In this document: one piece after another, positions 4,550-59,959 of the stretch
Layout: each line of letters opens with the position of its first letter
Numbering within the stretch: the stretch's first letter is position 1
NCBI GenBank assembly: GCA_001791995.1
Contig: MGFR01000001.1
Span: 14,880-78,879 of the forward strand
Direction of reading: 5' to 3'
Source of the DNA: Candidatus Woesebacteria bacterium RBG_13_46_13
GTDB taxonomy: Bacteria; Patescibacteriota; Microgenomatia; UBA8517
Length of the DNA stretch: 64,000 nt
Notes under the pieces: generated by a model
Told to the model about the DNA's origin: nothing
What the model saw: the letters and a program-made list of their open reading frames with translations, nothing else
The model's database searches: none
Made by a program: the position numbers and the translations under genes

Positions 4550-4579
4550 TGATCATGTCCTTCTTTCTTTTTTGAGAGC

Positions 4580-4706
4580 ACTGTTCTGGCGATGAAGTAT
4601 TTTCGCGCCCAGTTGCCCGGGAACTATCGTCCTCGCTGAGGCGTTTGACTTCTGAGTTCGGAATGGGATCAGGTCGTTCCACCTCGCTCCAATCACCAGA
4701 ACAGTG
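4580..4706 (-). rRNA. rrf: 5S rRNA
   Basis: The minus-strand sequence contains the 5S core CCTGATCCCATTCCGAACTCAGAAGTCAAACGCC. The terminal helix CACTGTTCTGGTG pairs with CATCGCCAGAACAGTG. Ends are approximate within 5 nt. Confidence 0.8.
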
Positions 4707-4749
4707 CCCTCAACTAATGCTATTTTGTACTTTTAAATCTGAAGAGAAA

Positions 4750-7668
<2,919 letters not shown>

Positions 7669-7750
7669 TTTCTCTTCAGATTTTAAAGTACAAATCAAAC
7701 GTTAATGAGCAGTGGACAGCCCCGATATCAAATCGGGGCTCACCACTACC

Positions 7751-7827
7751 CACTGGTGGACCCGGGGAGAGTCGAACTCCCTGCCTCATCATTGCAAATG
7801 ATGCGTTCAAACCGGGTAAACTTCGGG
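7751..7827 (-). tRNA. tRNA-Ala (anticodon UGC), CCA encoded
   Basis: Minus strand: GGGCCCGAAGTTTACCCGGTTTGAACGCATCATTTGCAATGATGAGGCAGGGAGTTCGACTCTCCCCGGGTCCACCA. G3-U70 wobble pair in the acceptor stem, anticodon loop TTTGCAA. It lies about 80 nt upstream of the 23S. Confidence 0.9.
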
Positions 7828-7863
7828 CCCTCTGGGAACTTAAATTAGGCTGTTAGGTGCAAC

Positions 7864-7890
7864 TAAAAAACCGGCAATTGAAGCCGGTTT
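7864..7890 (-). terminator. Hairpin plus U-tract (intrinsic-terminator-like) in the leader of the tRNA-Ala/23S unit. It may be read through by rRNA antitermination.
   Basis: Minus strand AACCGGC-TTCAATT-GCCGGTT followed by TTTTTTAG. It is preceded by a boxA-like CACGCTTTTAAATTAAA. Confidence 0.35.
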
Positions 7891-7986
7891 AATTTAAAAG
7901 CGTGTTTGCTCCACGCAGTTTCCCGCGTGTTTATTTTGGAATATAAGAAACGCTTGTCATTAAATTTGCTTCAATTAGCAAGGCAT

Positions 7987-8016
7987 ATTATATAGGAGAA
8001 TTGCAAGAAGCGTCAA
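7987..8016 (-). promoter_or_regulatory. Strong sigma70-like promoter reading leftwards into tRNA-Ala/23S/5S.
   Basis: Minus strand: TTGACG (plus 8011-8016), 16-18 nt spacer, TATATAAT (plus 7987-7994). It lies between the end of the upstream minus-strand CDS (8092) and tRNA-Ala. Confidence 0.5.
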
Positions 8017-8091
8017 GGGGACAAAAGAACAGGGCCAGGAACCAGAAATCGCACGAGGCGAAACTGGGCCTGGCCCAAGCATCGAATCTTC

Positions 8092-8661
8092 TCACCAAGC
8101 CGCACAAACCTGATCCACAGCGCTCTCCCCCAAGACGGCACCTGCCAGTTCATCGACAAAGCAGTAGAGTGTGTCGTCTGGAAGGTGCATCGTCCAGGTT
8201 TCCCACGGCCTTCCGGGGATTTTTTCCCACTCTCTACCTGAAATTCGGTAATAGAGCTCGCCTCCCAAGCACTCGGGTGCGGGGAAATCATCCACAATGC
8301 AGTGGGCAGAATTCAACCGCCTCGTGGCTAGAAAGCGAATGGCCTCCCCCTCATCGGGTGCCTGGGAAGGGATGGCCTGCTGTCCGGCTTGCCGATGGAG
8401 ATCGAGCTCCTCCTGCTCCATGGCCAGAATGCTCTCTATCAGATCGAGCATCGCCGAATCTGAAGCAAACAGATCCGAAATGCTCTGCTCGTCGTTGGCC
8501 AGGCGCTGGTTGTTTAAAGTTATGTACTCACCTATATAGCCTAGCCCCTCGACGGTCAGACCCCTCGAGGCCTCAAGGCCTTCGACCTTGACCCACAAAC
8601 CCACAACGAACAGGGCCAAGACAATAACCGCAACTGCCAAGATCCAGGTGATCGCTTTCAT
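8092..8661 (-). CDS. Hypothetical membrane-anchored protein (N-terminal TM plus an extracytoplasmic domain of about 150 aa). GC is elevated.
   Basis: 189-aa ORF with TM WILAVAVIVLALFVVGLWV. GC is roughly high-50s percent by eye against a mid-40s background. The overlapping plus-strand ORFs 8001..8591 and 8297..8539 look like shadow ORFs. Confidence 0.55.
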   Translation of the reverse strand: MKAITWILAVAVIVLALFVVGLWVKVEGLEASRGLTVEGLGYIGEYITLNNQRLANDEQSISDLFASDSAMLDLIESILAMEQEELDLHRQAGQQAIPSQAPDEGEAIRFLATRRLNSAHCIVDDFPAPECLGGELYYRISGREWEKIPGRPWETWTMHLPDDTLYCFVDELAGAVLGESAVDQVCAAW

Positions 8662-8806
8662 GCTCCCCTCCTTTGGGAATCAGGTTTATGATTTCAGGGT
8701 GCAAGACTCCGCCAAATGCGGATGCCGAAGTATATCCTATAGATGTTATCAAATCAAACAGGGGCAGTAATCAATTCGCTTTCGCGAAAGGCACTTGCCC
8801 CCGAAC

Positions 8807-9340
8807 TTACTCTACCTGTCCATTGAAACGCTCAATGGCTACCAATATCCCCTCGCCGGTCCGGAAGAAGGCTGGAAGGCTCCATTCATCGGGAGAAACC
8901 ACATCTTGGGCACTTCCCGAGTCTGGATCGTACCAGGCGATGAGCAGATCCCCCGCTCCGATATTGGACAGCGTGGTTTCGGCGATAACCGTTCCGCCTT
9001 TCTCGCGCAAGCAGATGCGCAATTCCTCGCCAATAGGAACATTGACGTAGGTGTTGGCGTCGTAAGGCCCCACCCCCGAGTAGTCTTGCATCTCTCCGAT
9101 GGTGAAATACTCTCCCGCCTCTCCCCGGTGTCCGAAAAAGACCAACGCGTTGTTGTCTAACCCCCGGACCCGGGCCTCGAAGATCATCTGCCTAAACCAG
9201 GCAACGGCCTGCTCCCTCTCCAGACCCGAGACCCTGGCATCGACCGATGAAGCCCTCAAGCCCAGGGTGTAGAGATTGATAATCAACAACAGGAGCAACG
9301 AGTGCAGCAATATCAGGCCAACCTTCAACCACTTGTTCAT
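8807..9340 (-). CDS. Hypothetical membrane-anchored protein. GC is elevated.
   Basis: 177-aa ORF with TM LKVGLILLHSLLLLLIINLY and a GGAGGAG RBS 8 nt upstream. It sits upstream of and co-oriented with 8092..8661. Confidence 0.55.
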   Translation of the reverse strand: MNKWLKVGLILLHSLLLLLIINLYTLGLRASSVDARVSGLEREQAVAWFRQMIFEARVRGLDNNALVFFGHRGEAGEYFTIGEMQDYSGVGPYDANTYVNVPIGEELRICLREKGGTVIAETTLSNIGAGDLLIAWYDPDSGSAQDVVSPDEWSLPAFFRTGEGILVAIERFNGQVE

Positions 9341-9434
9341 TCTTCTCCTCCGGTTTTTAAAGGGCGAATTCGGCGTGGCTCAATATACACCCAAATTGTT
9401 TTCGAGGCAAAATTGTGCTAAATTATGCCAATCC

Positions 9435-9508
9435 CGGGCGATTGGTTCAGCGGTAGAACGCTTTCCTGATAAGAAAGAGGTGGATGGTTCGACTCCATCA
9501 TCGCCCAC
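9435..9508 (+). tRNA. tRNA-Ile (anticodon GAU)
   Basis: GGGCGATTGGTTCAGCGGTAGAACGCTTTCCTGATAAGAAAGAGGTGGATGGTTCGACTCCATCATCGCCCACC. Anticodon loop CTGATAA. This is the canonical rRNA-spacer tRNA, but it is on the opposite strand to the rRNA genes. Confidence 0.9.
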
Positions 9509-9571
9509 CCCATATCCCACGGGGAGTGTGCACTACAATTTAGCCAAACTCGCATATATAATAGAAATCGT

Positions 9572-11704
9572 ATGACCAACCTGACCACCCTACTTCTTAG
9601 GCTTCCCCGTAATATCGAAGTCACACCGGAGGCCGCGCAAACCTTCCTCTCCGCCCTGACCCAGATTAACGGAGTTTCCTTTTTTCAAAGAATAACCGGG
9701 ACTTCTTCTCAGCCTCTTTCTCTCGAAATTGCCCTTATCAACCAACAAATCCAGTTTCTGATTACCTGCGATACGGAGCTGGTTCCGTTTGTTACCACCC
9801 AGATTCAATCCAACTACCCACTGGTAATCACCGAGAAAGTCCAGGACCCGATTGCCCAAAGGCAATTGTTTGTTACCAACCTGACTCTCAGAAACGGCAG
9901 CTATTACCCTTTGGCAACCTACGCCAACTTCACCGACATCGACCCTTTGGCCTCCATTCTTTCAGTTTTATCCAAAAGCAACCCCGACGATGTGGCAATA
10001 GTCCAGGTCGCACTGGAATCCACTTCCTCTTCTTGGCAATCGGCAGGAGCCTCTTTTGCCGAAAAAGGCAGGAAAAACGAGGATGGAACATATGCCCCAA
10101 GGCAGGACCAAAACGTAATTAAAGAGAAGATTTCTTACCCAGGCTTCAAGGTCTCCATTAGGGTTGCTGCCAATACGAATGAAACCCGAAAGGAGATGGT
10201 TTCCGCTTTCGGTGTTTTTTCCAGGGCAGACGGGAATTCTTTTAAGGCCAAGGGTTCTCCCCTGTTTAATAAGTCCGCCCTTTACCAAAATCTTTTCTCC
10301 CGAAAGGTTACCGACAATCAAATTTTAAACATCGTCGAGCTGGCAACTATCTGGCACCTTCCTTCCGACAAAATCAAAACACCAACTATAGCTTGGGGCC
10401 AGGCGGTTCTATCCGAACCTCCTGAAAACCTGCCGGTTGCCCTGGATGCCAACGAAGAGGAGAAAAAGCATATCAACTTCTTCGCCAAGACGCTTTACAA
10501 AAACCACGAAACGATTTTCGGAATTAAAGACATCGACAGAAGAAGACACATTTGGACAATCGGAAAAACGGGTACGGGTAAGTCTACCCTAATTGCCAAC
10601 ATGGCCATCGACGATTTGAAAAAGGGCCGGGGTTTGGCAGTCATTGACCCGCACGGAGACCTTTGCGAGATCATCCTGGACTACATTCCCAAAAGCAGGA
10701 TAGCTGATGTGGTCTACTTTAACCCGGCGGATAAGGATTACCCCATTGTCATCAACCCCCTGGAGGTCACCAACAAGGAGGAGGCGGAACTGGTGGTTTC
10801 AGGAATAGTTTCCATTTTTAACAAGATCTTCGGTTTCTCCTGGGGGCCAAGACTCGAGTACATCTTGAGAAACTCTTTAATGACCCTGGCCGAGATGCCC
10901 GATTCCACCTTAAAAGACGTGCCGCTTCTTCTTACCGACAGGGGCTTTAGAACCCGAGCCGTGGAAACCATCAATGATACGGTGCTGAAAGACTACTGGA
11001 CCTACGAATTTAACAAAATGACGGAAAAGCTGCAGCAGGAAGCCATTGCCCCGATCTTAAATAAAGTCGGGCAGTTTGTGACTTCCCCTTTAATCAGGAG
11101 CGTCATCGGCTCCCCCAAAAGCACGATTCAACTCGATGATGTTATGAACGGAGGCAAAATCCTTTTGGCCAACCTTTCCCAGGGACGCTTGGGAGAGGAT
11201 AACGCGGCCCTTTTAGGAGCAATGCTGATTACCAAACTCCAACTCGCCGCCATGCACCGGGTAGATATGCCGGAGGAACAAAGGCGGGATTTCTATCTTT
11301 ACGTCGACGAGTTCCAAAACTTTGCCACCGGGAGCTTTATCAAGATCATGTCCGAAGCCAGAAAGTACCGCTTAAACATTATGCTGGCGAATCAATACAT
11401 GGCCCAAATTCCCGAAGAGGTCCAAAAGGCAATTTTGGGAAATGCCGGGACAATAGTTTCGTTTGCGGTCGGGGCCTCCGACGGAGAAATTCTTTACAAA
11501 GAGTTTGCGGAGGTCTTCTCCCAAAACGATTTGGTCAATCTTTCCAATTACCAGGTCGCCATCAAAATGACCATCGACGGCTTAACTACCCGGCCGTATC
11601 TTGCCCATACCCTACCCCTGCCGATCTCCATCAACCAAAACAGGGAGAAGGTCATCCGTATCTCGCGCGAGCGCTGGAGCAAGAAGCTCGCAGGCAACCT
11701 ATAA
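9572..11704 (+). CDS. VirD4/TraD/TrwB-like (FtsK-HerA superfamily) P-loop ATPase, a type IV coupling-protein-like protein. Copy 1, with no N-terminal TM.
   Basis: Walker A IGKTGTGKST, then DPHGDL, Walker B FYLYVDEFQNF, and ANQ motifs. 710 aa. It aligns along its whole length with the ORF at 46725..49049 but lacks that ORF's roughly 35-aa N-terminal TM segment. Confidence 0.85.
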   Translation: MTNLTTLLLRLPRNIEVTPEAAQTFLSALTQINGVSFFQRITGTSSQPLSLEIALINQQIQFLITCDTELVPFVTTQIQSNYPLVITEKVQDPIAQRQLFVTNLTLRNGSYYPLATYANFTDIDPLASILSVLSKSNPDDVAIVQVALESTSSSWQSAGASFAEKGRKNEDGTYAPRQDQNVIKEKISYPGFKVSIRVAANTNETRKEMVSAFGVFSRADGNSFKAKGSPLFNKSALYQNLFSRKVTDNQILNIVELATIWHLPSDKIKTPTIAWGQAVLSEPPENLPVALDANEEEKKHINFFAKTLYKNHETIFGIKDIDRRRHIWTIGKTGTGKSTLIANMAIDDLKKGRGLAVIDPHGDLCEIILDYIPKSRIADVVYFNPADKDYPIVINPLEVTNKEEAELVVSGIVSIFNKIFGFSWGPRLEYILRNSLMTLAEMPDSTLKDVPLLLTDRGFRTRAVETINDTVLKDYWTYEFNKMTEKLQQEAIAPILNKVGQFVTSPLIRSVIGSPKSTIQLDDVMNGGKILLANLSQGRLGEDNAALLGAMLITKLQLAAMHRVDMPEEQRRDFYLYVDEFQNFATGSFIKIMSEARKYRLNIMLANQYMAQIPEEVQKAILGNAGTIVSFAVGASDGEILYKEFAEVFSQNDLVNLSNYQVAIKMTIDGLTTRPYLAHTLPLPISINQNREKVIRISRERWSKKLAGNL

Positions 11705-11706
11705 TC

Positions 11707-11734
11707 TTGCAATCCTTGCATTCTGTGGTATAAT
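11707..11734 (+). promoter_or_regulatory. Sigma70-like promoter TTGCAA-N16-TATAAT upstream of the GC-rich gene, with a 5' UTR of about 240 nt.
   Basis: TTGCAA at 11707-11712, a 16-nt spacer, and TATAAT at 11729-11734. Confidence 0.5.
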
Positions 11735-11799
11735 ATCGCAGTTCCCAATTGGCCCTTAAGCGGGCTTCAGATATGGGGTTTTTAGGTTCCTAGTACATT

Positions 11800-11815
11800 A
11801 ACAACGGGAGAACAA
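11800..11815. repeat. Left copy of a perfect 16-bp inverted repeat, AACAACGGGAGAACAA.
   Basis: It is the exact reverse complement of 13224-13239. It lies in the 5' UTR of the GC-rich gene. Confidence 0.6.
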
Positions 11816-11977
11816 AAACAAACGCCATCCCTGGCGATAATCAGGGAAACGCACGGTTTGCCTTAGACGGAGAAGTCTCTTGAGACTGCTAGCATGCAAA
11901 TCTCATGAGGAGCAGTCTCCCAAGGAGATCTATCCGCCAAGGGCAATCCTATTTCAAACGCACAACGGAGGTGCACA

Positions 11978-13159
11978 ATGAAAGGTCGCGGAATCAAGCT
12001 TCTGGCTTTGTTCGCGATCCTCGTTTTGGCTCTCGGCGCCACCGGCGCGGCCTTCGCGGCCCCGCCTCCGGCACCGAACGCCACCGGTCAGGACCAGGTC
12101 TGTCCGCACGACACGGATGGTTGGTCGTCCCATCAGGATCCCGGAACCTTCGGGGCTGTTGAGGGCGCTACCAACTACTGCGTCAAGGGCGGCAGTGAGC
12201 AGTCCGAATGCACCGGCTACCTCGAGATCGGCTCCTTCGAGTTTGTCTCGGGGATCCTCGGCGCTGAAGGCGCCTGCGGCCTTTCCCACTGGTCCTACCA
12301 GATGGAAGATGAGCCGGAGGTGGCCAGCGTTAGCGTCGACCCCGGCTCGTGTTACTGGGATGGCGCGTCCTACACGGACGTCGTCGTCGACATGACCGGC
12401 GCCGGCACGCTGACCATCACCGGGCCTGGCGGGCCGTACACCCGAACGGGTGACGACACGCTGACCTTGGGACCCGGCAGCTACAGCTGGACTTTCGTTC
12501 CGGCCGAGGGCTACGAACTTGAAGGACCCGGCTCGGGTTCCTTCGAAGTCGGGACGTGTGAACCCGAAACGGATCCCGCCTCGGTGAGTGTCGAACTCGG
12601 AACCTGCCGCTGGAGCGAGCAGTCAGGGTCTCAGACCCCACTGTCTTTCACCATCAGCGGCGAGGGCACGTTCTCGATCAACGGTTCCGACTACACCTCC
12701 GACGACGAGATCCTGCTCACGCCGGGAACCTACGGCTGGACTTTCGTTCCGGCCGAGGGGTATCACCTGGTTGGGCCGGGCTCCGGGAGCGTCGAAGTGC
12801 TCTCTTGTGAGCCTCCGCCTCCTGGCGGGGCATCGGGTTCGTTTGCGCTGTACTGCGGTGGCGGGATCAACGTCGCCCTGTCCAATGCCCAGCTCACGAT
12901 CGACGACCTGGACCCGATCCTCGAGAACGGGTCGTACGGGCTGAGCCTCGGTGAGCACACCTTCCTCTGGGAGGCTTTGCAGGGGTTTGAATTCCCTGAG
13001 GGCTTCCTGCTGCGAGGCGTCTTCACCATCGTCCCGTGCGGACCGCCCGACGAGCCGCCTACCGGCCCCGAAGGAGCTCTTCCCATCGCGGAAGGACTCG
13101 CTTTCCTGGCCTTCAGCGGCCTTGGAGCGCTCGGCATCCGGCGCATGAAGAAGCACTAG
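11978..13159 (+). CDS. Secreted Cys-rich repeat protein. Strongly GC-rich and compositionally foreign.
   Basis: 393 aa with signal peptide MKGRGIKLLALFAILVLALGATGAAFA. Two copies of a module of about 75 aa (PGSYSWTFVPAEGYELEGPGSGSFEVGTCEP / PGTYGWTFVPAEGYHLVGPGSGSVEVLSCEP). C-terminus is LPIAEGLAFLAFSGLGALGIRRMKKH, a hydrophobic helix plus a basic tail. Codon usage is dominated by GCC/GGC/CCG, with GC roughly 60-65% by eye. RBS is GGAGG. Confidence 0.8.
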   Translation: MKGRGIKLLALFAILVLALGATGAAFAAPPPAPNATGQDQVCPHDTDGWSSHQDPGTFGAVEGATNYCVKGGSEQSECTGYLEIGSFEFVSGILGAEGACGLSHWSYQMEDEPEVASVSVDPGSCYWDGASYTDVVVDMTGAGTLTITGPGGPYTRTGDDTLTLGPGSYSWTFVPAEGYELEGPGSGSFEVGTCEPETDPASVSVELGTCRWSEQSGSQTPLSFTISGEGTFSINGSDYTSDDEILLTPGTYGWTFVPAEGYHLVGPGSGSVEVLSCEPPPPGGASGSFALYCGGGINVALSNAQLTIDDLDPILENGSYGLSLGEHTFLWEALQGFEFPEGFLLRGVFTIVPCGPPDEPPTGPEGALPIAEGLAFLAFSGLGALGIRRMKKH

Positions 13160-13177
13160 CTTCTCTCTGCCGCCCAA

Positions 13178-13220
13178 CTGAGGGGCACCTGCACCTTTTG
13201 GTGCCCCTCAGTTTCAGTTT
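13178..13220 (+). terminator. Rho-independent terminator of the GC-rich gene.
   Basis: Perfect 12-bp stem CTGAGGGGCACC / GGTGCCCCTCAG with a 10-nt loop, followed by TTTCAGTTTC. Confidence 0.7.
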
Positions 13221-13223
13221 CTC

Positions 13224-13239
13224 TTGTTCTCCCGTTGTT
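13224..13239. repeat. Right copy of the 16-bp inverted repeat, TTGTTCTCCCGTTGTT.
   Basis: Reverse complement of 11800-11815. It lies immediately after the terminator. Confidence 0.6.
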
Positions 13240-13262
13240 CTACTTCATCTGCTAAAATAACC

Positions 13263-14267
13263 ATGAAAGAACAAAAACCAATTCATATGTCCGAACAGAA
13301 TAAATCATCCCTCGATTCTTGGCGCAGCAAACCCGCCGAGACCCCCAAACCCAAACTCTCAAGAAGAGGTTTTCTCAAAGGCGCCGTTTTGGGCGGAATC
13401 GGTCTCGGAGGAGCAGTCTATTCGGGTTTGAAGTTTTTGGAAGGATTGGGGCTTGAGCTGCCGCATAACTCCTTCGAACAAGAGCTACAGGCTCTTCCCA
13501 GGGAAGCTACGCCTACCCCCTTTCAGCCACGGGAGACCACTCCCGCGTCTTCGACTCAAACTCCTGAAGCAACGCCTGAACCATCCCCTACTCCGGAGGC
13601 CATCAATTATTGGGCTTTTGCCAAGGCGGATTTTTCCGATTCCGAACACTTAATTGACATGATGATTACCCTGAGGGATTCTTCCAGCCTTTTGGTTCCA
13701 TCCTTCATCCCCATCTCCTGGCATGATGGTCTTCAGCTAAGCGTAGATTTTGATCGGAGAAGAAATACCGGCCTTACCTATCTTGACGAGGACAGACGAA
13801 AAATACTTAATTTACACTCAGGAAGAGAAGGACCTTTGCACTCCGGCTACACCATGTGGGAAACCCAACTGGCTATTGAAACGGATGGACGGGGCAATAG
13901 AATTTATCCTGCCCAAGCCGACGAAAAACTTAGAACCCAGTTTATGGGAGCGGATGTCTTAATAAGACAAACCGAGGCAGGACTTGCCAAGATAGTAGCC
14001 GCGGTCAGGGTCCCCCCCAGCCTGGTCTACGAATCCACCCAGCACGTCTATGAAGAAACAGACCCTTCAGGTAGTGTCACCAACGAAGGGATAATCCCCT
14101 GGCTGGCAGCCAACTTCCCGGACAGCGGATTTGCGGATGTTGTCAACGACCGGGAGGTTTTAATTATTAAATTCTGCGGCAGAATCTTAAGCGGAGAGCG
14201 GGAGGATACCAGAATCGATTCGCCTTATCAGCAGGCACGCTTCTTCTTTGCCCTAAAGCAAAGTTAA
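13263..14267 (+). CDS. Hypothetical exported protein with a twin-arginine (Tat)-type signal, a PT-rich linker, and a C-terminal domain of about 200 aa.
   Basis: The track ORF is 13224..14267; the likely start is the ATG at 13263 (MKEQKP...). Signal SRRGFLKGAVLGGIGLGGAVYS matches S-R-R-x-F-L-K. The linker is rich in P/T/E. Confidence 0.7.
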   Translation: MKEQKPIHMSEQNKSSLDSWRSKPAETPKPKLSRRGFLKGAVLGGIGLGGAVYSGLKFLEGLGLELPHNSFEQELQALPREATPTPFQPRETTPASSTQTPEATPEPSPTPEAINYWAFAKADFSDSEHLIDMMITLRDSSSLLVPSFIPISWHDGLQLSVDFDRRRNTGLTYLDEDRRKILNLHSGREGPLHSGYTMWETQLAIETDGRGNRIYPAQADEKLRTQFMGADVLIRQTEAGLAKIVAAVRVPPSLVYESTQHVYEETDPSGSVTNEGIIPWLAANFPDSGFADVVNDREVLIIKFCGRILSGEREDTRIDSPYQQARFFFALKQS

Positions 14268-14281
14268 CTTATTTTCCCACT

Positions 14282-14312
14282 AAAAAACCACCTCATTAAA
14301 GGGTGGTTTTTT
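14282..14312. terminator. Bidirectional intrinsic terminator. It ends the plus-strand CDS and lies about 100 nt beyond the 16S 3' end on the minus strand.
   Basis: AAAAAACCACC-TCATTAAAG-GGTGGTTTTTT, with A-tract and T-tract on either side. Confidence 0.7.
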
Positions 14313-14411
14313 GTTGTCTTTGACGACCAGGAAATGACTAGGAGGAAGCCCGTTTTCTTAACAGTGAAACGGCGAATTTAAAACTGGGGTGTAAAATACC
14401 ACACTCCTTAG

Positions 14412-15869
14412 AAAGGAGGTGATCCATCCGCACCTTCCAGTACGGATACCTTGTTACGACTTAATCTTCATCGCTGGTGTCACCTTCTGCCCGAACATCG
14501 GACATTCGGGTGCCCCCAACTTTGCTGACTTGACGGGCGGTGTGTACAAGACCTGAGAACGTATTCACCGCGACATAGCTGATTCGCGATTACTACCAAT
14601 TCCGCGTTCATGAGGGCGAGTTGCAGCCCTCAATCCCTACTGAGAAGCCGTTTGATGGGATTAGCTCCGTGTTACCACTTGGCAACCCATTGTCGGCTTC
14701 ATTGTAGCATGTGTGTTGCCCCGGACATAAGGGCCATGCTGACTTGACGTCGTCCCCACTTCCTCCTCGCAAAGCGAGGCTGTACCATATGAATATTCAA
14801 CATATGGAAGGGGTTGCGCTCGTTACCCCACTGAAGGGAACACCCCACGGCACGAGCTGACGACAGCCATGCAACACCTGTGCTATCATCCTTACGGATC
14901 GGTCTCCGTTTCTGGAGACTTAAACGATAGCATGTCAAACCCGGGTAAGGTCCTTCGGTTCGTCTCGAATTAAACCACATGCTCCACTGGTTGTGCAGGT
15001 CCCCGTCAATTCCTTTGAGTTTTAAGCTTGCGCTCGTACTCCCCAGGCGGCTCGCTTAACGCGTTAGCTTACGGAACCCCCGATAAATCGAGGATCCCTA
15101 GCGAGCAAAGTTTACGGCTAGGACTACAGGGGTCTCTAATCCCTTTCGCTCCCCTAGCTGTCGTTCCTCAGCGTCAAAGATTCCCTAGCTACTTGCCTTC
15201 GCCCTTGGTGTTCCTCTCGATATCAACGGATTTCACCCCTACACCGAGAGTTCCAGTAGCCCCGAGAACTTTCAATCTAAGTAGTATTACACCCCTTCCC
15301 AAGGTTAAGCCCTGGTCTTTGAAGTGTAACTTACCTAGTCGCCTACGAAACGCTTTACGCCCAGTAAATCCGGATAACGCTTGCACCCTCTGTATTACCG
15401 CGGCTGCTGGCACAGAGTTAGCAGGTGCTGATTCTCCAAGCTCATTGGTGCTTGGCAAAAGAGGTTTACAACCCGAAGGCCTTCATCCCTCACGCGGCGT
15501 CGCGGCGTCAGACTTTCGTCCATTGCGCACGATTCCCAGTTGCTGCCACCCGTAGGTGTATGGGCCGTGTCTCAGTCCCATTCTGGGGGGTCACGCTCTC
15601 ACGTCCCCTACCCGTCATAGCCTTGGTAGGCCATTACCCTACCAACAAGCTGATGGGAGATAGGCTCATCCCTCGGTGCGCAGTTACGCGCTTTCTCCTT
15701 GCGGACTTATGCGGTATTAGCCCGTCTTTCGACGGGGTATTCCCCGCCAAGGGGTAGATTCCTATCTTATACTCAGCCGTTCGCAACTTGCCTCTTGCGA
15801 GGCCCGTTTTACTTGCATGCTTAAAGCACGCCGCCAGCGTTCATCCTGGACCAGGATCAAATCCTCAAA
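14412..15869 (-). rRNA. rrs: 16S rRNA, about 1.46 kb, no intron apparent
   Basis: Minus-strand 5' end GAGGATTTGATCCTGGTCCAGGATGAACGCTGGCGGCGTGC. The 3' end is ...GTAACAAGGTATCCGTACTGGAAGGTGCGGATGGATCACCTCCTTTC. Confidence 0.95.
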
Positions 15870-16201
15870 TTGTGACGGAAGGAAAACCACACGAACGTGG
15901 CTCTCCCGTCCTATATAAAGCACTCCTAGTCATTTCCTGATTGCCGAATATTAGCATTCGGTCCCGCATGGCTCCCGTTAGAGCCTGGTGGGATCAAGAA
16001 ATATTAATTGCTGTCTTTAATTGTTAAGGTTCAAGCTAAAAGTAACAGGAAACAAGCTATAAGTAGGCAGAAAAGACGAAAAATCAAACTAATGAAAATA
16101 AACTAAGCCTTTCTTTACTTGTAACTTGTTGCCTAATACTTTTAAGGTCCTGAAGTTGTTACCCTAAAGGGAAGTTAACCTCTACTGAAGAAAATTTTGA
16201 C

Positions 16202-44392: not shown

Positions 44393-44487
44393 ACTGGGCT
44401 GCTACATGCGGGGTAGTGTACGGCTGCACGGAAGGCTCATAATCTTCCAGGCTAGGTTCAACTCCTAGCCCCGCAACACGGATTTGA

Positions 44488-44559
44488 GCCAACGTAGCTC
44501 AGCGGTAGAGCAAGGATTTCATAAGTCCGAGGCCAGAGGTTCGAATCCTCTCGTTGGCA
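44488..44559 (+). tRNA. tRNA with CAU anticodon (elongator Met or Ile2-lysidine type; G1-C72 pair, so not an initiator)
   Basis: GCCAACGTAGCTCAGCGGTAGAGCAAGGATTTCATAAGTCCGAGGCCAGAGGTTCGAATCCTCTCGTTGGCA. Anticodon loop TTCATAA. Confidence 0.85.
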
Positions 44560-44561
44560 CT

Positions 44562-45044: not shown

Positions 45045-45911
45045 ATGGCCCAAGAAGCATTAAAAACTCTGCTCCCAAAATTTATCGACAGCCTGAAAGA
45101 AAAAGGCCGCTCTCCTGCTACCGTGCTGGCCTATAGAGCAGACCTTGAACAGCTGATCGTTTTTCTGCATGGAAAGAACAAAGTTATGCCCGAAGGCATT
45201 ACCTCTTCCGACCTTGAGGCATTCCGCGACACCCTTTTGGCGGAAAAATACACACCCAAATCGGTCTCCAGGAAGCTAAATGCCGTCAAGACTTTCTTTA
45301 GATGGCTGATCTCTGAGAATCACCTCACCTCCGACCCTTCCGTTAATGTTGCCCATCCCAAAATCGAATCTTCGCTGCCGAAGTTTCTCTCGCAGCTGGA
45401 GTACCGCGCTCTAAGGGACGTGGTCAGAGCCGACACCAGAATTGCCGCGATCGTGGAATTGATCCTTCAGGCCGGATTGAGAATTTCCGAGGTGGCAAGT
45501 CTGAAAACGGAAAATGTCAAAGCGGATAGCCTTAAAGTTGAGGCCTATGCCACCCAGCCGGAAAGGACTATTCCCTTAAACAGGCCCGCCAAGGATGCGC
45601 TTGCCGGCTATATGTCCGATCGACCCACCAAGATTGCCTCCGTCTATGTTTTCATCAGCAAAAACGGCAAAGCCTTGGCGGTCAGGAATATCCGGGCCGC
45701 AATCGACAGATATATGCAGAGGGCAGAAATTCCTAACTATTCGGTTAACGATTTAAGAACCACTTTTATGGTCGAAAATATTAAATCCGGTGTGGATTTG
45801 GTACTTCTTTCCCAGGTTTCCGGACACAAGCGGCTTTCAACTACGGAGCGCTATTTGGAACTGGCGCAGGTTAAAGAACCCGGCAAGAGACAATCTTTGA
45901 TTGAGCTTTAA
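45045..45911 (+). CDS. Tyrosine site-specific recombinase, XerC/XerD-like
   Basis: N-terminal SAM-like domain. Catalytic domain with R...HxxR...Y (LSQVSGHKRLSTTERYLEL); 288 aa. Confidence 0.85.
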   Translation: MAQEALKTLLPKFIDSLKEKGRSPATVLAYRADLEQLIVFLHGKNKVMPEGITSSDLEAFRDTLLAEKYTPKSVSRKLNAVKTFFRWLISENHLTSDPSVNVAHPKIESSLPKFLSQLEYRALRDVVRADTRIAAIVELILQAGLRISEVASLKTENVKADSLKVEAYATQPERTIPLNRPAKDALAGYMSDRPTKIASVYVFISKNGKALAVRNIRAAIDRYMQRAEIPNYSVNDLRTTFMVENIKSGVDLVLLSQVSGHKRLSTTERYLELAQVKEPGKRQSLIEL

Positions 45912-45913
45912 GC

Positions 45914-46615
45914 CTATTCGAAGGTTTTGGCCAACTCCCCTATTTGTCTGCGTCTGATTACCAATTTCTCGTCGCTAGCGGCAATTTCCTGGGCCAGCTT
46001 GAGGTGTTTTTTGGCCTCAAAGGGGTTATCCTCCCTTAAAAGCTCCGCCAATCTCATGTGTACCCCGGATTCCCAGACGTGGATCAAAAAAGGATCCAGT
46101 TCGCTGGCCCCTTGTTGAATTTCGGCCAGTCCGGCCAGTATGGTTGACTTCCCTTCCTCTTTCTGGCCGTTACGGTACTGCGCCTCCCCCAGGTGATAGC
46201 GAAAATCTCCCTTTTCCGAGATAGGCCCCTGATAAACAACCAAGGCCTTCTGGTAAAAATTGATGGCGGTCGGATAATCCTCAAAAAGCATTGCTACCTC
46301 CCCCAACCTGAAATAGGAGGTGTCGAGTTTATCCTCCAAATGATATTCCTGAGATATCGACAGCATCGCCTCCGCGTCTTTTTGAGCCAAAATCGCATAA
46401 GCTTTATCGTTGCTGGTTAAAAATAGATGCTTCCAGGTCAGGGTTCTGTCTTTTAAGGCATCTATCAATCCCCGATAGTTGCCTTCTTTCTGGTAAGCCA
46501 CAACGGCCAGTGTCAAATACTGAAGTGCCTCAAGGTGTTTATCCTCTTCCCGGAGTTGCCCCCCTTTTGAATGCAACTCCTGTCCGCTTAGTTCCTCGAT
46601 CTTTTTCTCTTGCAT
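45914..46615 (-). CDS. TPR-repeat protein
   Basis: 233 aa, repeated 34-residue TPR-like helical motifs. Confidence 0.6.
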   Translation of the reverse strand: MQEKKIEELSGQELHSKGGQLREEDKHLEALQYLTLAVVAYQKEGNYRGLIDALKDRTLTWKHLFLTSNDKAYAILAQKDAEAMLSISQEYHLEDKLDTSYFRLGEVAMLFEDYPTAINFYQKALVVYQGPISEKGDFRYHLGEAQYRNGQKEEGKSTILAGLAEIQQGASELDPFLIHVWESGVHMRLAELLREDNPFEAKKHLKLAQEIAASDEKLVIRRRQIGELAKTFE

Positions 46616-46619
46616 ACTG

Positions 46620-46690
46620 TGGGCTCTGAGAGAGTCGAACTCCCGCGTCGACTTTATAAGAGTCGTGTCCTGCCGTTAAACGAAGAGCCC
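46620..46690 (-). tRNA. tRNA-Ile with the unusual UAU anticodon (the AUA decoder)
   Basis: Minus strand: GGGCTCTTCGTTTAACGGCAGGACACGACTCTTATAAAGTCGACGCGGGAGTTCGACTCTCTCAGAGCCCA. Perfect 7-bp acceptor stem, perfect 5-bp anticodon stem, loop CTTATAA. Confidence 0.8.
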
Positions 46691-46724
46691 CTGAAGCTGA
46701 ATTATATCATTTTAGCCTTGAAAA

Positions 46725-49049
46725 TTAAAGCTTGGCCCTTCGGGTAATCTCTGCTTCCACCAGACGCATATCGCGACCGTAGCGTAATTTGCTCATTTCT
46801 TTGATTATCTGGGCAACCCTCTCGTTTTCCACTTCCTTGAGTTTCCCCATATCGCGGGTCAAATCCATTGAAAAAGGCGGAACCGGCTCGTTATTGACAG
46901 TAGTTTTGGCGTAGACGTGGTAGCGCTCGATATTTAAGAGGTCATCCTCGGCGAAGGTCGGGGTAAATTCATGAGCCAGGTAGGAAGCGTCGGTTACCCC
47001 TACCCTAAAGGCGATAATCGTTCCGACGTTGCCGAAGACGGCATTTTTAACCTCTTCTTCTACCTGACCAATAAATTGGTTGGCAACAGTGAGGTTAAGC
47101 CGATACTTTCTGGCTTCGGAAAGGATCTGGGCGAAGTCCGGAGTGGCAAAGTTTTGAAACTCGTCAACATAAAGATAGAAGTCCCGCCTTTTATCCTCGG
47201 GCACATCTTGCCTGCTCATGGCCGCCATTAGAATTCTCGGGACCAAAACCAGGCCCAGGAAGTTCGAGTTTTCCTCCCCAATCTCGCCTTTGGCCAGATT
47301 GATAAGGAGGATCTTGCCGGAATCCATCACCTCGCGGAAAGAGAATGAAGACTGGGATTGCCCGATGATGTTTCTGATCATCTTGTTGGTAACAAACCTG
47401 CCGAATTTGGAAACAATGTAGTCCAAGACCTCGGACTTGTGGAAATCCGCCGTCTGGGCGATTTGGTCGGTCCAATAGCGCCGGACAATGGGGTCGGTTA
47501 CTTTTGGCAGGAGTTCGGCCACAAACTGGGAGTCGGTCAGAATCCTCATGACCTCGACAAAAGTTGAGCCCTCGTCGCTCATGGCCGTCAGCATGGCATT
47601 TCTGACCGCGTGTTCAAATCTGGGTCCGACAATGCCGGTCTTATATGGATCGAAGAGCTTGTACATCATGTTAATCACCGAGGTGGCCACAAAGTGTTTC
47701 TCGTCTTCGGTATGGGCCTCAAGCAAATTTAGGCCCATCGGCCGTTCGGTATCCCCGGGGTTAAAGTAGATGACATCCTCGGCGCGCTCGGGCGGGATAA
47801 GCTTTAGAAGGTCCTCGATGGCATCTCCGTGCGGGTCCATAAAACAAAGGCCGCGTCCGGCGCGGATATCCTGCATAATCAAATCCTTCAAAAGTTCGGT
47901 CTTACCCGTCCCGGTTTTACCGATGATATAGACGTGTCTTCTTCTGTCGTCGTCTCCGATATAGACCGGTCTTTTGATTCCCCGGTAACTGCTTAATCCC
48001 AAATAAAGACCTTGCGAGGGAATCTCCGAGGGAGCCGGGGCTGTTTTGGAGTAGAGCCAATAAATATGGGGGGTGGTAACCTGCTTGTTGGGAAAATGAT
48101 AGACGGTGGAAAGTTCCTCGGAATTAAGTATCGATGAATGGCTACCTAAGACATGGAACATCGGCTGATACCTGTAGAGAAAGTCTTCCATAAAAGCACC
48201 CTTGCTTCTTATTTTTCTGCCTTTAAAGCCGTTGGCTTCCGAGCTGAACTGTTCAAAACTGGAGGCGATATTCTCGATATGCATTTTGGCAACCTCGATG
48301 GTTGGGGCCGTGGTTACAATTCTGGTTGAAACCTCGAATCCGGGCTTACCGATTTTTGCCTCAACCGCTTCCAGAGTTTTGGCCGAGGTGGAAAACTTGG
48401 CCTTTTGAGGATCGGATTCCTGTTTTTTGGTGTCTGAAATAAAACTTCGTCCTTCTTTCTGCCAGGAAGAATCGGCGGGAGAAACCAAAATTTGGATTGC
48501 GGCTGCCTCACCCTCCCCCATTTTTGCTAACGCCGATGTCAAAAGAGCCAGAGAATCGGTGGGTAATTCCTTATAAGTCTTGATCGGATAAAAATTGCCC
48601 CGGGAGAGCTGGAAAGATTTATAGGCAACCTTACCCTTTTCCGGAAAGATATTATATTCTTCGACCTCGACAACCTCTGCCTCCGGGTAGGCCCCGTGGA
48701 TTTGTTTTTCCACCAAATCCTTAAGTTTTCTTGATGTCCAAACGTAAAAACGGATGTCTTCTTTCTTGGCTACAATCTCGAACGAAACCGTCGGCTGAAC
48801 CGAGAATTTTTGTTTAAAGCCTCCCTTTTTAATTGAATAAAGCGAGGCGAAGAGCTGTTCCATGGCATCGATCTTTATTTCATTCCCGCGTGGAACCGCC
48901 ACCTGCAGTAAAACGGAGTCCAAAGACCTGCCCTCCCTGCCGCGATTGCGGAATAAGGTAAAGGCGACATAGCCCGTAAAAGCCACCAAAAGGGATCCCA
49001 GTCCCAAAAGGATTAGGGCAGCTACGATCGTATTTAAACTAGGCAGCAC
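46725..49049 (-). CDS. VirD4/TraD/TrwB-like type IV coupling-protein-like ATPase, copy 2, with an N-terminal TM anchor
   Basis: 774 aa. N-terminal TM segment IVAALILLGLGSLLVAFTGYVAFTLF. Walker A IIGKTGTGKTELL, DPHGD, Walker B FYLYVDEFQNF, and ANQ. It is a full-length paralog of 9572..11704. Confidence 0.85.
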   Translation of the reverse strand: MLPSLNTIVAALILLGLGSLLVAFTGYVAFTLFRNRGREGRSLDSVLLQVAVPRGNEIKIDAMEQLFASLYSIKKGGFKQKFSVQPTVSFEIVAKKEDIRFYVWTSRKLKDLVEKQIHGAYPEAEVVEVEEYNIFPEKGKVAYKSFQLSRGNFYPIKTYKELPTDSLALLTSALAKMGEGEAAAIQILVSPADSSWQKEGRSFISDTKKQESDPQKAKFSTSAKTLEAVEAKIGKPGFEVSTRIVTTAPTIEVAKMHIENIASSFEQFSSEANGFKGRKIRSKGAFMEDFLYRYQPMFHVLGSHSSILNSEELSTVYHFPNKQVTTPHIYWLYSKTAPAPSEIPSQGLYLGLSSYRGIKRPVYIGDDDRRRHVYIIGKTGTGKTELLKDLIMQDIRAGRGLCFMDPHGDAIEDLLKLIPPERAEDVIYFNPGDTERPMGLNLLEAHTEDEKHFVATSVINMMYKLFDPYKTGIVGPRFEHAVRNAMLTAMSDEGSTFVEVMRILTDSQFVAELLPKVTDPIVRRYWTDQIAQTADFHKSEVLDYIVSKFGRFVTNKMIRNIIGQSQSSFSFREVMDSGKILLINLAKGEIGEENSNFLGLVLVPRILMAAMSRQDVPEDKRRDFYLYVDEFQNFATPDFAQILSEARKYRLNLTVANQFIGQVEEEVKNAVFGNVGTIIAFRVGVTDASYLAHEFTPTFAEDDLLNIERYHVYAKTTVNNEPVPPFSMDLTRDMGKLKEVENERVAQIIKEMSKLRYGRDMRLVEAEITRRAKL

Positions 49050-49383
49050 TTTGTTCTCTCCTTCCTGTAACTATCCTCCAGCCAAAATGGACGGCCCTTT
49101 TAAAGACCCTCATCCAAAAGGCCGCAAACCAGGTGATGGCCTCGTCCGGAGTTCCTTTGGACAAAGCCGAAAGCTGATCTTTTTCCCCGGGAAGTTCGAT
49201 GGTAACGGGCTCCGTTGCCGAAGTTCCGATGAGGGCCCTACCGCTATCATCCGTTACCTGGGCCTTAAATTGGCTGGGAGTTGGAACTACTACCCCCTTA
49301 TTCTCAACGGTAATGGGAATCTCGGGAAATTCCTCTGCCCTATCTTCGACCGGTAAATGCTCTCTTTCTGGAGATGCAACCAT
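49039..49383 (-). CDS. Hypothetical protein immediately upstream of and overlapping the VirD4-like gene. The C-terminus is amphipathic and Trp-rich.
   Basis: 114-aa ORF ending AITWFAAFWMRVFKRAVHFGWRIV. It overlaps the downstream gene by 11 nt. Confidence 0.45.
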   Translation of the reverse strand: MVASPEREHLPVEDRAEEFPEIPITVENKGVVVPTPSQFKAQVTDDSGRALIGTSATEPVTIELPGEKDQLSALSKGTPDEAITWFAAFWMRVFKRAVHFGWRIVTGRREQSAA

Positions 49384-59917: not shown

Positions 59918-59959
59918 GGCTCTTTGTAAGGAAGCTGCGACCTGATAAAATACCGTGCA

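Follow-up and report, generated by a model that had tools for sequence, protein, structure and literature searches.

A vertically inherited pair of coupling-protein-like ATPases of Patescibacteria and its adjacency to two tRNA-Ile genes in a Woesebacteria genome

The two ATPase genes that each adjoin a tRNA-Ile gene in the 64,000-nucleotide stretch of Candidatus Woesebacteria bacterium RBG_13_46_13 DNA that we analysed (hereafter the window) form a gene pair of ancient origin in Patescibacteria (CPR bacteria), which is inherited vertically and conserved to a very high degree. Their position beside tRNA-Ile genes has two unrelated, non-mobile causes, conserved gene order in one case and a split rRNA operon in the other. 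We consider it probable, taking the evidence together, that this old VirB4/VirD4-superfamily pair consists of coupling-protein-type translocation motors and that its tRNA adjacency does not reflect mobility.

Results

Two paralogous P-loop ATPases

The copy 1 gene (9572..11704, + strand) encodes a soluble protein of 710 aa with a DUF8128 domain and a coupling-protein-like ATPase, and the copy 2 gene (46725..49049, - strand) encodes its membrane-anchored paralog of 774 aa. The preliminary description of this DNA had recognized them as full-length paralogs with shared Walker A and Walker B motifs, and BLASTP confirmed this with 35% identity over ~708 aligned positions (E-value of 3e-142), the motifs GKTGTGK(S/T), DPHGD, FYLYVDEFQNF and ANQ being common to both copies in the alignment. 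The Walker A motif of copy 1 (GKTGTGKS) occupies residues 331-338 and its Walker B motif (YLYVDEFQ) residues 575-582. Walker A, Walker B, an RK pair and ANQ are invariant over 94 sequences from the two clades described below, and the motor of both proteins is of the P-loop type found in the VirB4/VirD4 clade, its Walker A and Walker B intact. Since all catalytic motifs are kept in both, both should be active ATPases. The GC content of both genes is genome-typical.

Pfam searches with TrwB_AAD_bind, TraG-D_C and DUF87, which had been suggested as a check, returned weak matches above gathering scores that were confined to the C-terminal half. The NCBIfam whole-protein models for TraD, VirD4 and CD1115 reached at best 34-55 bits against cut-offs of 250-650, TIGR00929 (VirB4_CagE), whose cut-off is 643, scored 20.4 bits and for copy 2 only, neither paralog matched AAA_10/CagE_TrbE_VirB in Pfam, and sequence matches of solved T4CPs to the paralogs were restricted to the Walker A region. 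The N-terminal 320 aa had no match in NCBIfam or in the Pfam set searched, from which the PF26449 model was absent. Precomputed Pfam domains of the homologs are PF26449 and PF10412, and PF26449 is annotated on the 100%-identical proteins (P0001, P0121) and their orthologs; the source names of the homologs read Woesebacteria/Patescibacteria [quoted passage not shown]. A literature search for "DUF8128" returned no paper.

Structure prediction gave the N-domain of ~300 aa (PF26449/DUF8128; residues 1-~296 of copy 1, 9572..10459) the fold of the VirB4 N-terminal domain, followed by a VirB4/TrwB-like motor in which an all-alpha insertion (helices at residues 402-512) separates Walker A from Walker B. 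In the predicted model, 368 of the 420 TrwB residues could be aligned, and the structural matches of the N-domain were to VirB4 only, at 9% identity. A sequence profile of the N-domain run against PDB sequences retrieved no VirB4 and yielded only a chance match (E-value of 0.78), so the VirB4 link is a structural one, drawn from predicted models.

Membrane helix and small partner ORF

Copy 2 has the N-terminal membrane anchor noted earlier, a single hydrophobic helix at ~residues 8-33 (~48951..49028) with a Kyte-Doolittle 19-residue maximum of 2.41, and a TM helix is present in 65 of 65 full-length copy 2-type proteins. Copy 1 begins directly with the conserved core, its residue 3 aligning with residue 42 of copy 2. 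The N-terminal extension with the TM helix is missing from 77 of 82 copy 1-type proteins, including ones encoded far from rRNA genes, and the start methionine and N-terminus are kept in copy 1 orthologs located nowhere near an rRNA operon. Copy 1-type proteins are thus natively devoid of the helix and copy 1 is not truncated, which overturns the suggestion that a rearrangement had removed its N-terminus.

A small partner ORF of 114 aa (49039..49383, - strand), also picked out beforehand, shares 11 nt with the start of the copy 2 gene. Its N-terminal part is acidic and of low complexity and its C-terminal helix is basic and amphipathic (ITWFAAFWMRVFKRAVHFGW); the protein has no Pfam or NCBIfam match, and any resemblance to VirB3 would be one of gene position. 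A same-strand small ORF (100-190 aa) lies immediately upstream of the ATPase gene in 53 of 62 copy 2-type loci, often with an overlap of 1-23 nt, and most of these small upstream ORFs carry the C-terminal motif (R/T)W(L/F)A.W..R.IK.

Distribution and phylogeny

Using a threshold of E<=1e-10, we counted at least 6121 and at least 7513 homologs of the two paralogs. The DUF8128 profile retrieves 4187 representatives (50% clustering); among the 150 matches listed, the domain is N-terminal in nearly all (start within ~the first 120 residues), full-length proteins measure ~700-1100 aa, and many shorter matches resemble fragments. Orthologs of both genes occur across Microgenomates and other CPR lineages, at 72-86% identity for copy 1, with conserved M1 and N-terminus, and 77-98% for copy 2. 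Across relatives' loci copy 2 is conserved about as strongly as FtsH (73% versus 71%), and Xer, PduO and TrpRS are far less conserved than copy 2 in the same loci.

In a neighbour-joining tree of 146 proteins, 80 copy 1-type and 66 copy 2-type sequences separate cleanly into two reciprocally monophyletic clades, with the sequences of lineages that carry the genes in tandem basal within each of the two clades. By this tree the duplication is ancient and did not arise in this genome. The preliminary description had asked whether one copy is native and the other acquired, and both clades turn out to be vertically inherited; its second reading, an ATPase for DNA uptake or secretion that is conserved in CPR bacteria and was duplicated here, is supported as regards a conserved CPR ATPase for secretion or transfer of DNA and fails for the place and age of the duplication.

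Gene order

Distant CPR lineages carry a copy 2-type gene followed by a copy 1-type gene in tandem or overlapping (L148, L152, L157, L160 and L076), and these pairs are flanked by rplJ, rplL, tgt and secDF. Such adjacency in distant lineages suggests a common ancestral operon, in which the pair probably began and which would mean that the two proteins work together. The copy 1 and copy 2 genes are unlinked in Microgenomates; they lie 35 kb apart in the window and, in two relatives that have both copies on a single contig, 37-42 kb apart on opposite strands.

Within the DNA covered, the search for VirB4, VirB6 or pilin partners that had been advised for the whole genome came out empty: the 64-kb window holds no VirB4, VirB6, pilin or relaxase gene, and ~170 related CPR loci show no T4SS gene (VirB4, VirB6, pilin) and no relaxase beside either paralog. 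Clustering the 80 copy 1-type loci by neighbourhood likewise revealed neither a T4SS gene nor a partner gene that is conserved between loci. A link of the pair to a T4SS is therefore made by analogy. The neighbourhood is of a housekeeping kind, with RNR, Xer, DivIC, tgt, secDF and rRNA genes.

A split rRNA operon around copy 1

Both ATPase genes do abut a tRNA-Ile gene, as first reported. On the copy 1 side this is tRNA-Ile(GAU) (anticodon GAT; 9436..9509, + strand; ARAGORN and Rfam), which lies 62 nt before the copy 1 start. The 16S rRNA gene (14412..15872, - strand; Rfam 1377 bits) is convergent with the copy 1 gene block, and its processing stem is formed by inverted repeat I1 (14319-14344 / 15923-15948). 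The downstream part of the split operon consists of tRNA-Ala(UGC) (7754..7830), the 23S rRNA (4751..7666) and the 5S rRNA (4584..4700), all on the - strand and the latter two each with their own processing stem, and a promoter-like site (8016..7987, - strand) precedes this tRNA-Ala-23S-5S block. The distance between the 16S and 23S genes is 6,745 nt (7666 to 14412), above the 1,500 bp that define an unlinked rRNA operon (10.1101/705046). The split operon enclosing tRNA-Ile(GAU) and copy 1 had been overlooked in the preliminary description.

The 16S-23S spacer of 6.6 kb (7831..14411) contains copy 1 and four lineage-specific ORFs, of 189 aa (8092..8661, - strand), 177 aa (8807..9340, - strand), 393 aa (11978..13159, + strand) and 347 aa (13224..14267, + strand). 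These four have no Pfam or NCBIfam match and, within the related loci, homologs only in a contig of the same species (L166); we treat them as putative lineage-specific accessory genes. The copy 1 gene is in antisense orientation, with the 16S gene on one side and the tRNA-Ile, tRNA-Ala, 23S and 5S genes on the other, an arrangement confined to the closest relatives, and 75 of 80 copy 1-type loci occupy other, tRNA-free positions. An rRNA operon normally has tRNA-Ile(GAU) in its spacer. Here this tRNA gene runs opposite to the rRNA genes; among related loci it is on the rRNA strand in L172, L002 and L020 and inverted in L001, L016 and L161/L162. Compared with the unlinked rRNA operons of Patescibacteria (Brewer et al., bioRxiv 10.1101/705046), the spacer here keeps the canonical tRNA-Ile and tRNA-Ala and additionally has a conserved antisense copy 1 and variable accessory ORFs.

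An assembly chimera across the rRNA genes was considered and rejected: the same order is found in five independent contigs (L166, L161/L162, L001, L016 and L172), which indicates that the arrangement is not an artefact. The repeats in 7600-16000 are the stems for rRNA processing and, flanking a GC-rich ORF, an inverted repeat. A transfer of this ORF from a high-GC organism was also discarded, its 18 homologs being of Woesebacteria type and adjoining copy 1 orthologs.

The surroundings of copy 2

The second tRNA gene, tRNA-Ile(UAU) (anticodon TAT; 46619..46690, - strand; ARAGORN and Rfam), lies 34 nt past the copy 2 stop. The same tRNA occurs at most 5 kb downstream of the copy 2-type gene in 38 of 65 related loci, within a housekeeping neighbourhood, and its linkage follows identity class (9 of 10 loci at >=70% identity, 1 of 11 at <50%). 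Two observations had been named as speaking against tRNA-targeting elements, vertical inheritance of both copies and no linkage to tRNA genes; inheritance is vertical, and linkage does exist in relatives, where it takes the form of conserved synteny. A Xer-type tyrosine recombinase gene (45045..45911, + strand; Pfam Phage_integrase and SAM_1; best NCBIfam models XerC/XerD/XerA) is convergent with copy 2. This convergence of recombinase and ATPase recurs in 29 loci with a spacing of -6 to 2774 nt, and the recombinase is a case of conserved synteny, not the integrase of an element.

We searched the window for att-like duplicates of both tRNA-Ile 3' ends (<=3 mismatches) and retrieved only the tRNA genes themselves; no relevant direct repeats bound the ATPase gene in 7600-16000.

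Relation to known ATPases

Outside CPR bacteria, one relative is a Bacillus plasmid protein (26% identity over residues 64-726, E-value of 1e-56) encoded by the first gene of an operon in which Replic_Relax, TcpC and an AAA_10/VirB4 ATPase are encoded as well, and there are further relatives on haloarchaeal and Sulfolobus plasmids; full-length Bacillus plasmid relatives occupy the coupling-protein position, beside a relaxase-family gene. Relatives in phage collections are distant only (<=24% identity, e.g. Bacillus phage G gp156) and uninformative for CPR bacteria.

The paralogs resemble VirD4/TrwB/TraD/DotL coupling proteins in their TrwB_AAD_bind and TraG-D_C matches above gathering scores and in the N-terminal anchor of copy 2. 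VirD4 proteins usually have two TM helices, whereas copy 2 has one and copy 1 none; the paralogs also differ from VirD4-type coupling proteins by an extra VirB4-like domain of ~300 aa before the motor (after the anchor in copy 2), and by being chromosomal, divided into two ancient clades and unlinked to relaxase or T4SS genes. With VirB4/TrwK they appear to share the succession of a VirB4-type N-terminal domain and a C-terminal ATPase domain, as judged from the predicted models, and copy 2 has a translationally coupled small gene upstream, in what may correspond to the position that virB3 takes relative to virB4. They depart from VirB4/TrwK in scoring ~20 bits against 643 with TIGR00929, in having no AAA_10 match and in retrieving no VirB4 from the PDB with the N-domain profile, and a separate canonical VirB4 is encoded in the operons of the Bacillus plasmid relatives. 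According to PMC12102498, most Patescibacteria have such a separate VirB4 as well. From the HerA/FtsK-clade translocases (HerA, the DptH/DndH C-domain, EccC) they differ in having no HAS-barrel, no partner nuclease and a VirB4-like N-domain.

Discussion

In the only Patescibacteria that, to our knowledge, can be manipulated genetically, epibiotic life depends on the T4SS-like apparatus. The gene cluster for this apparatus has no recognisable coupling protein (Wang et al. 2023), and PMC12102498 counts 5,713 VirD4-type homologues in 2,918 Patescibacteria genomes (~2 per genome), only 148 of them near virB4. These homologues and the DUF8128 pair are almost certainly one and the same set of genes. 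The passages of that paper on these homologues give counts, and speak neither of two clades nor of an anchored/soluble split, a tandem order, the N-domain or a small partner.

The analysis shows how the two genes are related to each other and to their homologs, how they are ordered in genomes, which folds their domains have and which motifs are conserved; from there we infer an oligomeric state, a cooperation of the copies, a kind of substrate and a link to a T4SS. The pair most likely functions as a membrane-anchored and a soluble coupling-protein-type translocation ATPase. Copy 2-type proteins are tethered to the membrane by their one N-terminal helix and co-translated with the small partner, whose C-terminal end is a basic amphipathic helix, and copy 1-type proteins are soluble in Microgenomates. 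Both paralogs would form rings, which may be mixed or stacked, act as ATP-driven motors at the cytoplasmic membrane, recruit a macromolecular substrate (DNA or protein) and push it toward an envelope channel, which by analogy would most plausibly be the Patescibacteria T4SS-like apparatus encoded elsewhere.

The main reading of the preliminary description was that integrative elements targeting tRNA-Ile account for the two loci, and it does not survive the analysis. That each ATPase is a part or remnant of an integrative or conjugative element inserted at tRNA-Ile could draw on the adjacency of both genes to such tRNAs, on the tyrosine recombinase 813 nt beyond copy 2, on the 0-4 variable small genes between copy 2 and the recombinase in relatives, on the strain-specific genes in the spacer around copy 1 and on the presence of family relatives on conjugative plasmids. 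Orthologs are found, however, throughout the sampled Microgenomates at tRNA-free sites, as at most copy 1-type loci, the two clades are reciprocally monophyletic and vertically inherited in a housekeeping context, the variable genes flank the ATPases and exclude them, the recombinase is Xer-like and syntenic in ~30 loci, and tRNA-Ile(GAU) is an ordinary rRNA spacer tRNA; with normal GC content, neither tRNA 3' end duplicated in the window and no relaxase, VirB4 or VirB6 there, we regard insertion at tRNA-Ile as highly improbable. We give even less credence to copy 1 being a recent, truncated, possibly decaying duplicate that arose when the rRNA operon was rearranged and split: its missing TM helix and its place in a rearranged rRNA spacer beside an inverted tRNA would fit, but the copies share only 35% identity, the catalytic motifs are all invariant, and orthologs at 72-86% identity conserve M1 and the N-terminus, the helix being equally absent from copy 1-type proteins encoded far from rRNA genes.

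An exaptation of the pair away from type IV secretion, as a HerA/FtsK-like DNA translocase or the motor of another envelope machine, deserves more weight, although we still think it unlikely. Possible exaptation of the VirD4-type homologues has been raised (Quinonero-Coronel et al. 2025, PMC12102498), and DNA uptake, repair, chromosome handling and type IV pili are among the options. The same paper reports that the t4cp homologue of Southlakia epibionticum was not essential where the T4SS genes were, which argues against an obligatory T4SS role, although redundancy of the two paralogs might account for this result, and the rarity of virB4 nearby, the housekeeping neighbours (RNR, Xer, DivIC, tgt, secDF, rRNA genes) and the extreme, FtsH-level conservation point the same way. 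Against it, VirB4 is the only match of the N-domain among the structural comparisons of the predicted models, coupling proteins are the best sequence-model matches, full-length plasmid relatives sit within conjugation operons, and the HerA partners NurA, Sir2 and DUF4297 are absent next to the genes in related loci. More speculative, and in our estimate rather improbable, is a hetero-oligomeric stacked-ring motor in which anchored paralog, soluble paralog and small partner would together form a core CPR translocon independent of any T4SS cluster, with the family linking VirB4 and VirD4. Such a motor would be VirB4-like, and one role might be the membrane transport of DNA or protein, whether taken from the host or made by the cell itself.

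The hook of a class of tRNA-Ile-targeting mobile elements in CPR genomes is removed, and the lesson for annotation is that neither an adjacent tRNA gene nor a Xer gene close by should be taken here for a mark of an integrative element. There remains a coupling-protein-like ATPase pair, ~2 per genome across the sampled Patescibacteria, conserved like FtsH and detached from the T4SS cluster. Its anchored and soluble clades, probable former single operon and predicted VirB4-like N-domain provide testable hypotheses on how minimal cells energise macromolecule transfer, and the results bear on the relationship between VirB4 and VirD4. Should the two paralogs and their small partner indeed form a stacked-ring motor, the DUF8128 family, which has a VirB4-type N-domain on a coupling-protein-type motor, would bridge VirB4 and VirD4 in evolution.

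Paralogous ATPase genes and protein family

We compared two ATPase ORFs of the window, copy 1 (9572..11704, plus strand, 710 aa) and copy 2 (46725..49049, minus strand, 774 aa), which aligned end to end with 35% identity (E 3e-142) and have in common the motifs GKTGTGK(S/T), DPHGD, FYLYVDEFQNF and ANQ. A tRNA-Ile(GAU) gene (9436..9509, plus strand) ends 62 nt before copy 1, and a tRNA-Ile(UAU) gene (46619..46690, minus strand) starts 34 nt after the stop codon of copy 2. Copy 2 carries a single N-terminal hydrophobic helix and its start is overlapped by 11 nt by a 114-aa ORF (49039..49383, minus strand), here called the small partner; copy 1 starts at the conserved core. ORFs, alignment and tRNA positions thus agree with the preliminary description of paralogy, motifs, tRNA-Ile adjacency, helix and overlapping ORF. 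Both genes have a GC content typical of the genome, and the window matches a section of contig DATEXV010000003.1 from the Patescibacteria MAG GCA_035256625.1 with 100% identity.

Profile searches gave weak hits that were confined to the C-terminal half and favoured coupling proteins (TrwB_AAD_bind, TraG-D_C, SXT_TraD and CD1115); the only solved relatives by sequence were TrwB and DotL. The N-terminal domain of about 300 aa corresponds to PF26449 (DUF8128), and a profile search for it returned 4,187 cluster representatives; in the 150 matches listed, a few excepted, the domain is N-terminal. When this domain was used as a query without the P-loop domain, P-loop proteins other than VirB4 were absent from the match lists, from which we infer that it resembles the VirB4 N-terminal domain. 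Neither paralog clade shows variation in Walker A, Walker B, an RK pair or ANQ, so both copies should be active ATPases, judging from sequence. The family to which both genes belong is catalogued but uncharacterised, and its architecture and paralog structure make it a distinct variant of the coupling-protein kind.

Phylogeny and inheritance

Homologs number in the thousands for each copy. Orthologs, from Woesebacteria or Microgenomates, had 77-98% identity to copy 2 and 72-86% to copy 1, and those of both copies carried precomputed PF26449 (DUF8128) and TrwB_AAD_bind annotations. We sampled 80 copy 1-type loci from species-representative genomes (including Woese-, Levy-, Shapiro-, Gottesman-, Roizman-, Ames-, Chisholm-, Davies- and Beckwithbacteria, as well as WWE3, Berkelbacteria and Saccharibacteria) and 80 copy 2-type loci from metagenomes. 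In a neighbour-joining tree, 146 full-length proteins fell into two cleanly separated clades, copy 1 (80) and copy 2 (66), with the same distant lineages basal in both. In distant lineages (L076, from Berkelbacteria, L148, L152, L157 and L160) the two types lie side by side, with a 4-nt overlap, a gap of 1-15 nt or a single ORF of about 175 aa between them, and are surrounded by rplJ, rplL, tgt and secDF. The duplication is therefore older than these lineages and the pair probably began as an operon; of the earlier suggestion of a conserved CPR ATPase duplicated here, conservation stood and a local duplication did not. In two relatives both copies lie on a single contig, on opposite strands and 37-42 kb apart (35 kb in the window). 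Conservation of copy 2 (73%) compares with that of FtsH (71%), and its neighbours Xer, PduO and TrpRS are far less conserved. Old and core-like, both genes have been inherited vertically.

In the tandem lineages a conserved ORF of about 175 aa (cluster c61) lies directly 3' of the copy 2-type gene, and in L076 and L160, which have the copy 1-type gene as well, it lies between the two; ORFs of 170-230 aa adjoin ATPase genes in L076, L075, L153, L156 and L160.

An N-terminal truncation of copy 1 by a rearrangement had been raised as a possibility, which the copy 1-type proteins contradict: the N-terminal extension was absent in 77 of 82 copy 1-type proteins, including about 75 far from any rRNA operon, and their M1 and N-terminus are conserved. 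The helix was found in all full-length copy 2-type proteins (65/65) and, among copy 1-type proteins, only in those of the tandem lineages and one other; the soluble state is therefore old in the Microgenomates clade.

Genomic neighborhood of copy 2

The tRNA-Ile(UAU) gene, whose anticodon is unusual among bacteria, was located at most 5 kb downstream of the copy 2-type gene in 38 of 65 loci (9/10 loci at identities of at least 70%, 1/11 below 50%), at distances of 0 to 4.6 kb and in either orientation. It belongs to a conserved block with the order NrdR, RNR, RNR, PduO adenosyltransferase, small partner, ATPase, tRNA-Ile, Xer (convergent), DivIC, two tRNA-Met, TrpRS and FtsH. In 29 loci the recombinase (best models XerC/XerD/XerA) and the ATPase are convergent, and the interval between them (46691..45045 in the window; equivalents in L083-L159) measures -6 to 2,774 nt and contains 0-4 variable, unrelated small genes, which points to a small variable hotspot around tRNA-Ile(UAU) with the ATPase outside it. 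In 53 of 62 copy 2-type loci the small partner, an ORF 100-190 aa long on the same strand, immediately precedes the ATPase gene and often overlaps its start. The sequence of the partner evolves fast, with a C-terminal (R/T)W(L/F)A.W..R.IK, a basic amphipathic helix, in most versions, and its position is, purely by analogy, reminiscent of virB3 upstream of virB4.

In the window the interval holds a 233-aa TPR protein (45914..46615), and a pair of tRNA-Met(CAU) genes is close by (44407..44560). The segment 49399..55123, syntenic in relatives, encodes NrdR, two adjacent ribonucleotide reductase large-subunit paralogs (887 aa with a TSCPD domain and 712 aa with an ATP-cone) and a PduO-type cobalamin adenosyltransferase. 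Further on, 57680..62200 holds two tandem class A penicillin-binding protein genes (745 and 746 aa), both with transglycosylase and transpeptidase domains.

rRNA operon around copy 1

Using Rfam, we located 5S (4584..4700), 23S (4751..7666), tRNA-Ala(UGC) (7754..7830) and 16S (14412..15872), all on the minus strand; with this full gene set, tRNA-Ile(GAU) is the canonical spacer tRNA. The 6.7-kb 16S-23S spacer holds copy 1, in antisense, and four ORFs matching no family, so that the operon is "unlinked" by the criterion of a 1,500-bp 16S-23S distance (10.1101/705046), as is common in Patescibacteria (10.1101/705046). Long inverted repeats resembling processing stems flank each rRNA gene (4572..4713, 4724..7694 and 14319..15948), a strong match to a sigma-70-like promoter (7987..8016, minus strand, 11/12 match) lies upstream of tRNA-Ala-23S-5S, and a bidirectional terminator-like hairpin with a 13-bp stem (14281..14313) separates 16S from the convergent ORF 13224..14267 of the copy 1 block. 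These elements suggest that 16S and 23S-5S are separate transcription units.

The rRNA association was restricted to the closest relatives, neither rRNA genes nor tRNA-Ile being present at the other 75 copy 1-type loci. The most compact case, L172 (76% identity, 685-kb contig), reads 5S(-), 23S(-), tRNA-Ala(-), tRNA-Ile(GAU)(-), ATPase(+), 16S(-), with the ATPase start 29 nt from tRNA-Ile(GAU); L016 has a similar order and L163 (77% identity) only the 16S link. In the window's sub-lineage (L001, L016, L161/162 and L166) tRNA-Ile(GAU) is inverted, and variable ORFs are gathered on both sides in the window and L161/L162.

At 23S site 5685/5686, uninterrupted in the window, the same-species contig L166 carries about 750 nt (6064-6813) and L016 about 657 nt (4235-4892); L172 has about 293 extra nt at a different 23S site (6423-6716) and L161 about 150 near 16S position 75. 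Introns in the rRNA or insertions, such as have been reported for CPR, may account for these differences. The 715-nt segment 8030..8743, just upstream of the promoter-like site, contains ORF 8092..8661 (minus strand; 189 aa, N-terminal TM helix) and is missing from the otherwise 96-99% identical L166, which makes it a strain-specific indel in the rRNA spacer. ORF 11978..13159 (plus strand), in segment 11800..13239, has 65% GC against about 49% for the genome and is bracketed by a perfect 16-nt inverted repeat (11800-11815/13224-13239). Its 393-aa Gly/Pro/Thr-rich product, with a C-terminal hydrophobic anchor and an internal repeat (12473-12564/12722-12813), differs in the middle between the window and L166 and may be a hypervariable surface protein; its only 18 homologs are all apparently on Woesebacteria-type contigs, some adjoining copy 1 orthologs.

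Assessment of the tRNA-Ile adjacencies and proposed function

The paired adjacency had been taken to suggest integrative elements targeting tRNA-Ile. In the window we found neither att-like copies of either tRNA-Ile end nor relaxase, VirB4, VirB6 or pilin genes, the last three having been proposed as partners. The two adjacencies therefore differ in age and cause, and coincidence best explains that they occur together. We reject the integrative-element reading and consider it almost certain that the pair is ancient and vertically inherited and that tRNA adjacency does not reflect mobile-element biology.

As a tentative mechanism, which may well be wrong in its specifics, copy 2 and the small partner would form a membrane-tethered ring ATPase, with which soluble copy 1 would co-assemble or on which it would dock, the two jointly using ATP to recruit DNA or protein substrates and drive them towards an envelope channel, most plausibly a T4SS-like apparatus. 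The main rival, that the pair was exapted to a T4SS-independent role as a DNA or protein translocase, we consider rather unlikely. Passages of Quinonero-Coronel et al. 2025 (PMC12102498) count 5,713 VirD4-type homologues in 2,918 Patescibacteria genomes (about 2 per genome), only 148 of them near virB4, and report that the S. epibionticum homologue is not essential and may be exapted; an essential T4SS cluster lacking a recognisable coupling protein appears in passages of Wang et al. 2023. The literature passages on VirD4-type homologues describe neither the two clades, the anchored versus soluble split and the tandem arrangement nor the partner ORF and VirB4-like N-terminal domain, and a literature search for DUF8128 returned no mention.

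Relatives outside CPR

Using tblastn, we found matches on 714 plasmid records, 21 of which carried full-length relatives including the N-terminal domain (25-27% identity). On the 27.5-kb Bacillus subtilis plasmid NZ_CP154917.1 (3558-14333), the relative (E 1e-56 against copy 2) takes first place in an operon that also encodes a Replic_Relax protein, TcpC, an AAA_10 (VirB4-type) ATPase and other conjugal-transfer proteins, and so occupies the coupling-protein position. On a haloarchaeal plasmid (Haladaptatus, 5690-12837), the DUF8128-like domain is a separate 350-aa ORF flanked by a VirB4-like ATPase and a TrwB_AAD_bind ATPase. A further full-length relative is gp156 of Bacillus phage G. Given the plasmid relatives in conjugation-type operons, the family appears to be a subtype of coupling protein belonging to conjugation systems of monoderms and archaea, which fits the kinship of Patescibacteria T4SS with MPF-FATA systems described in passages of PMC12102498.
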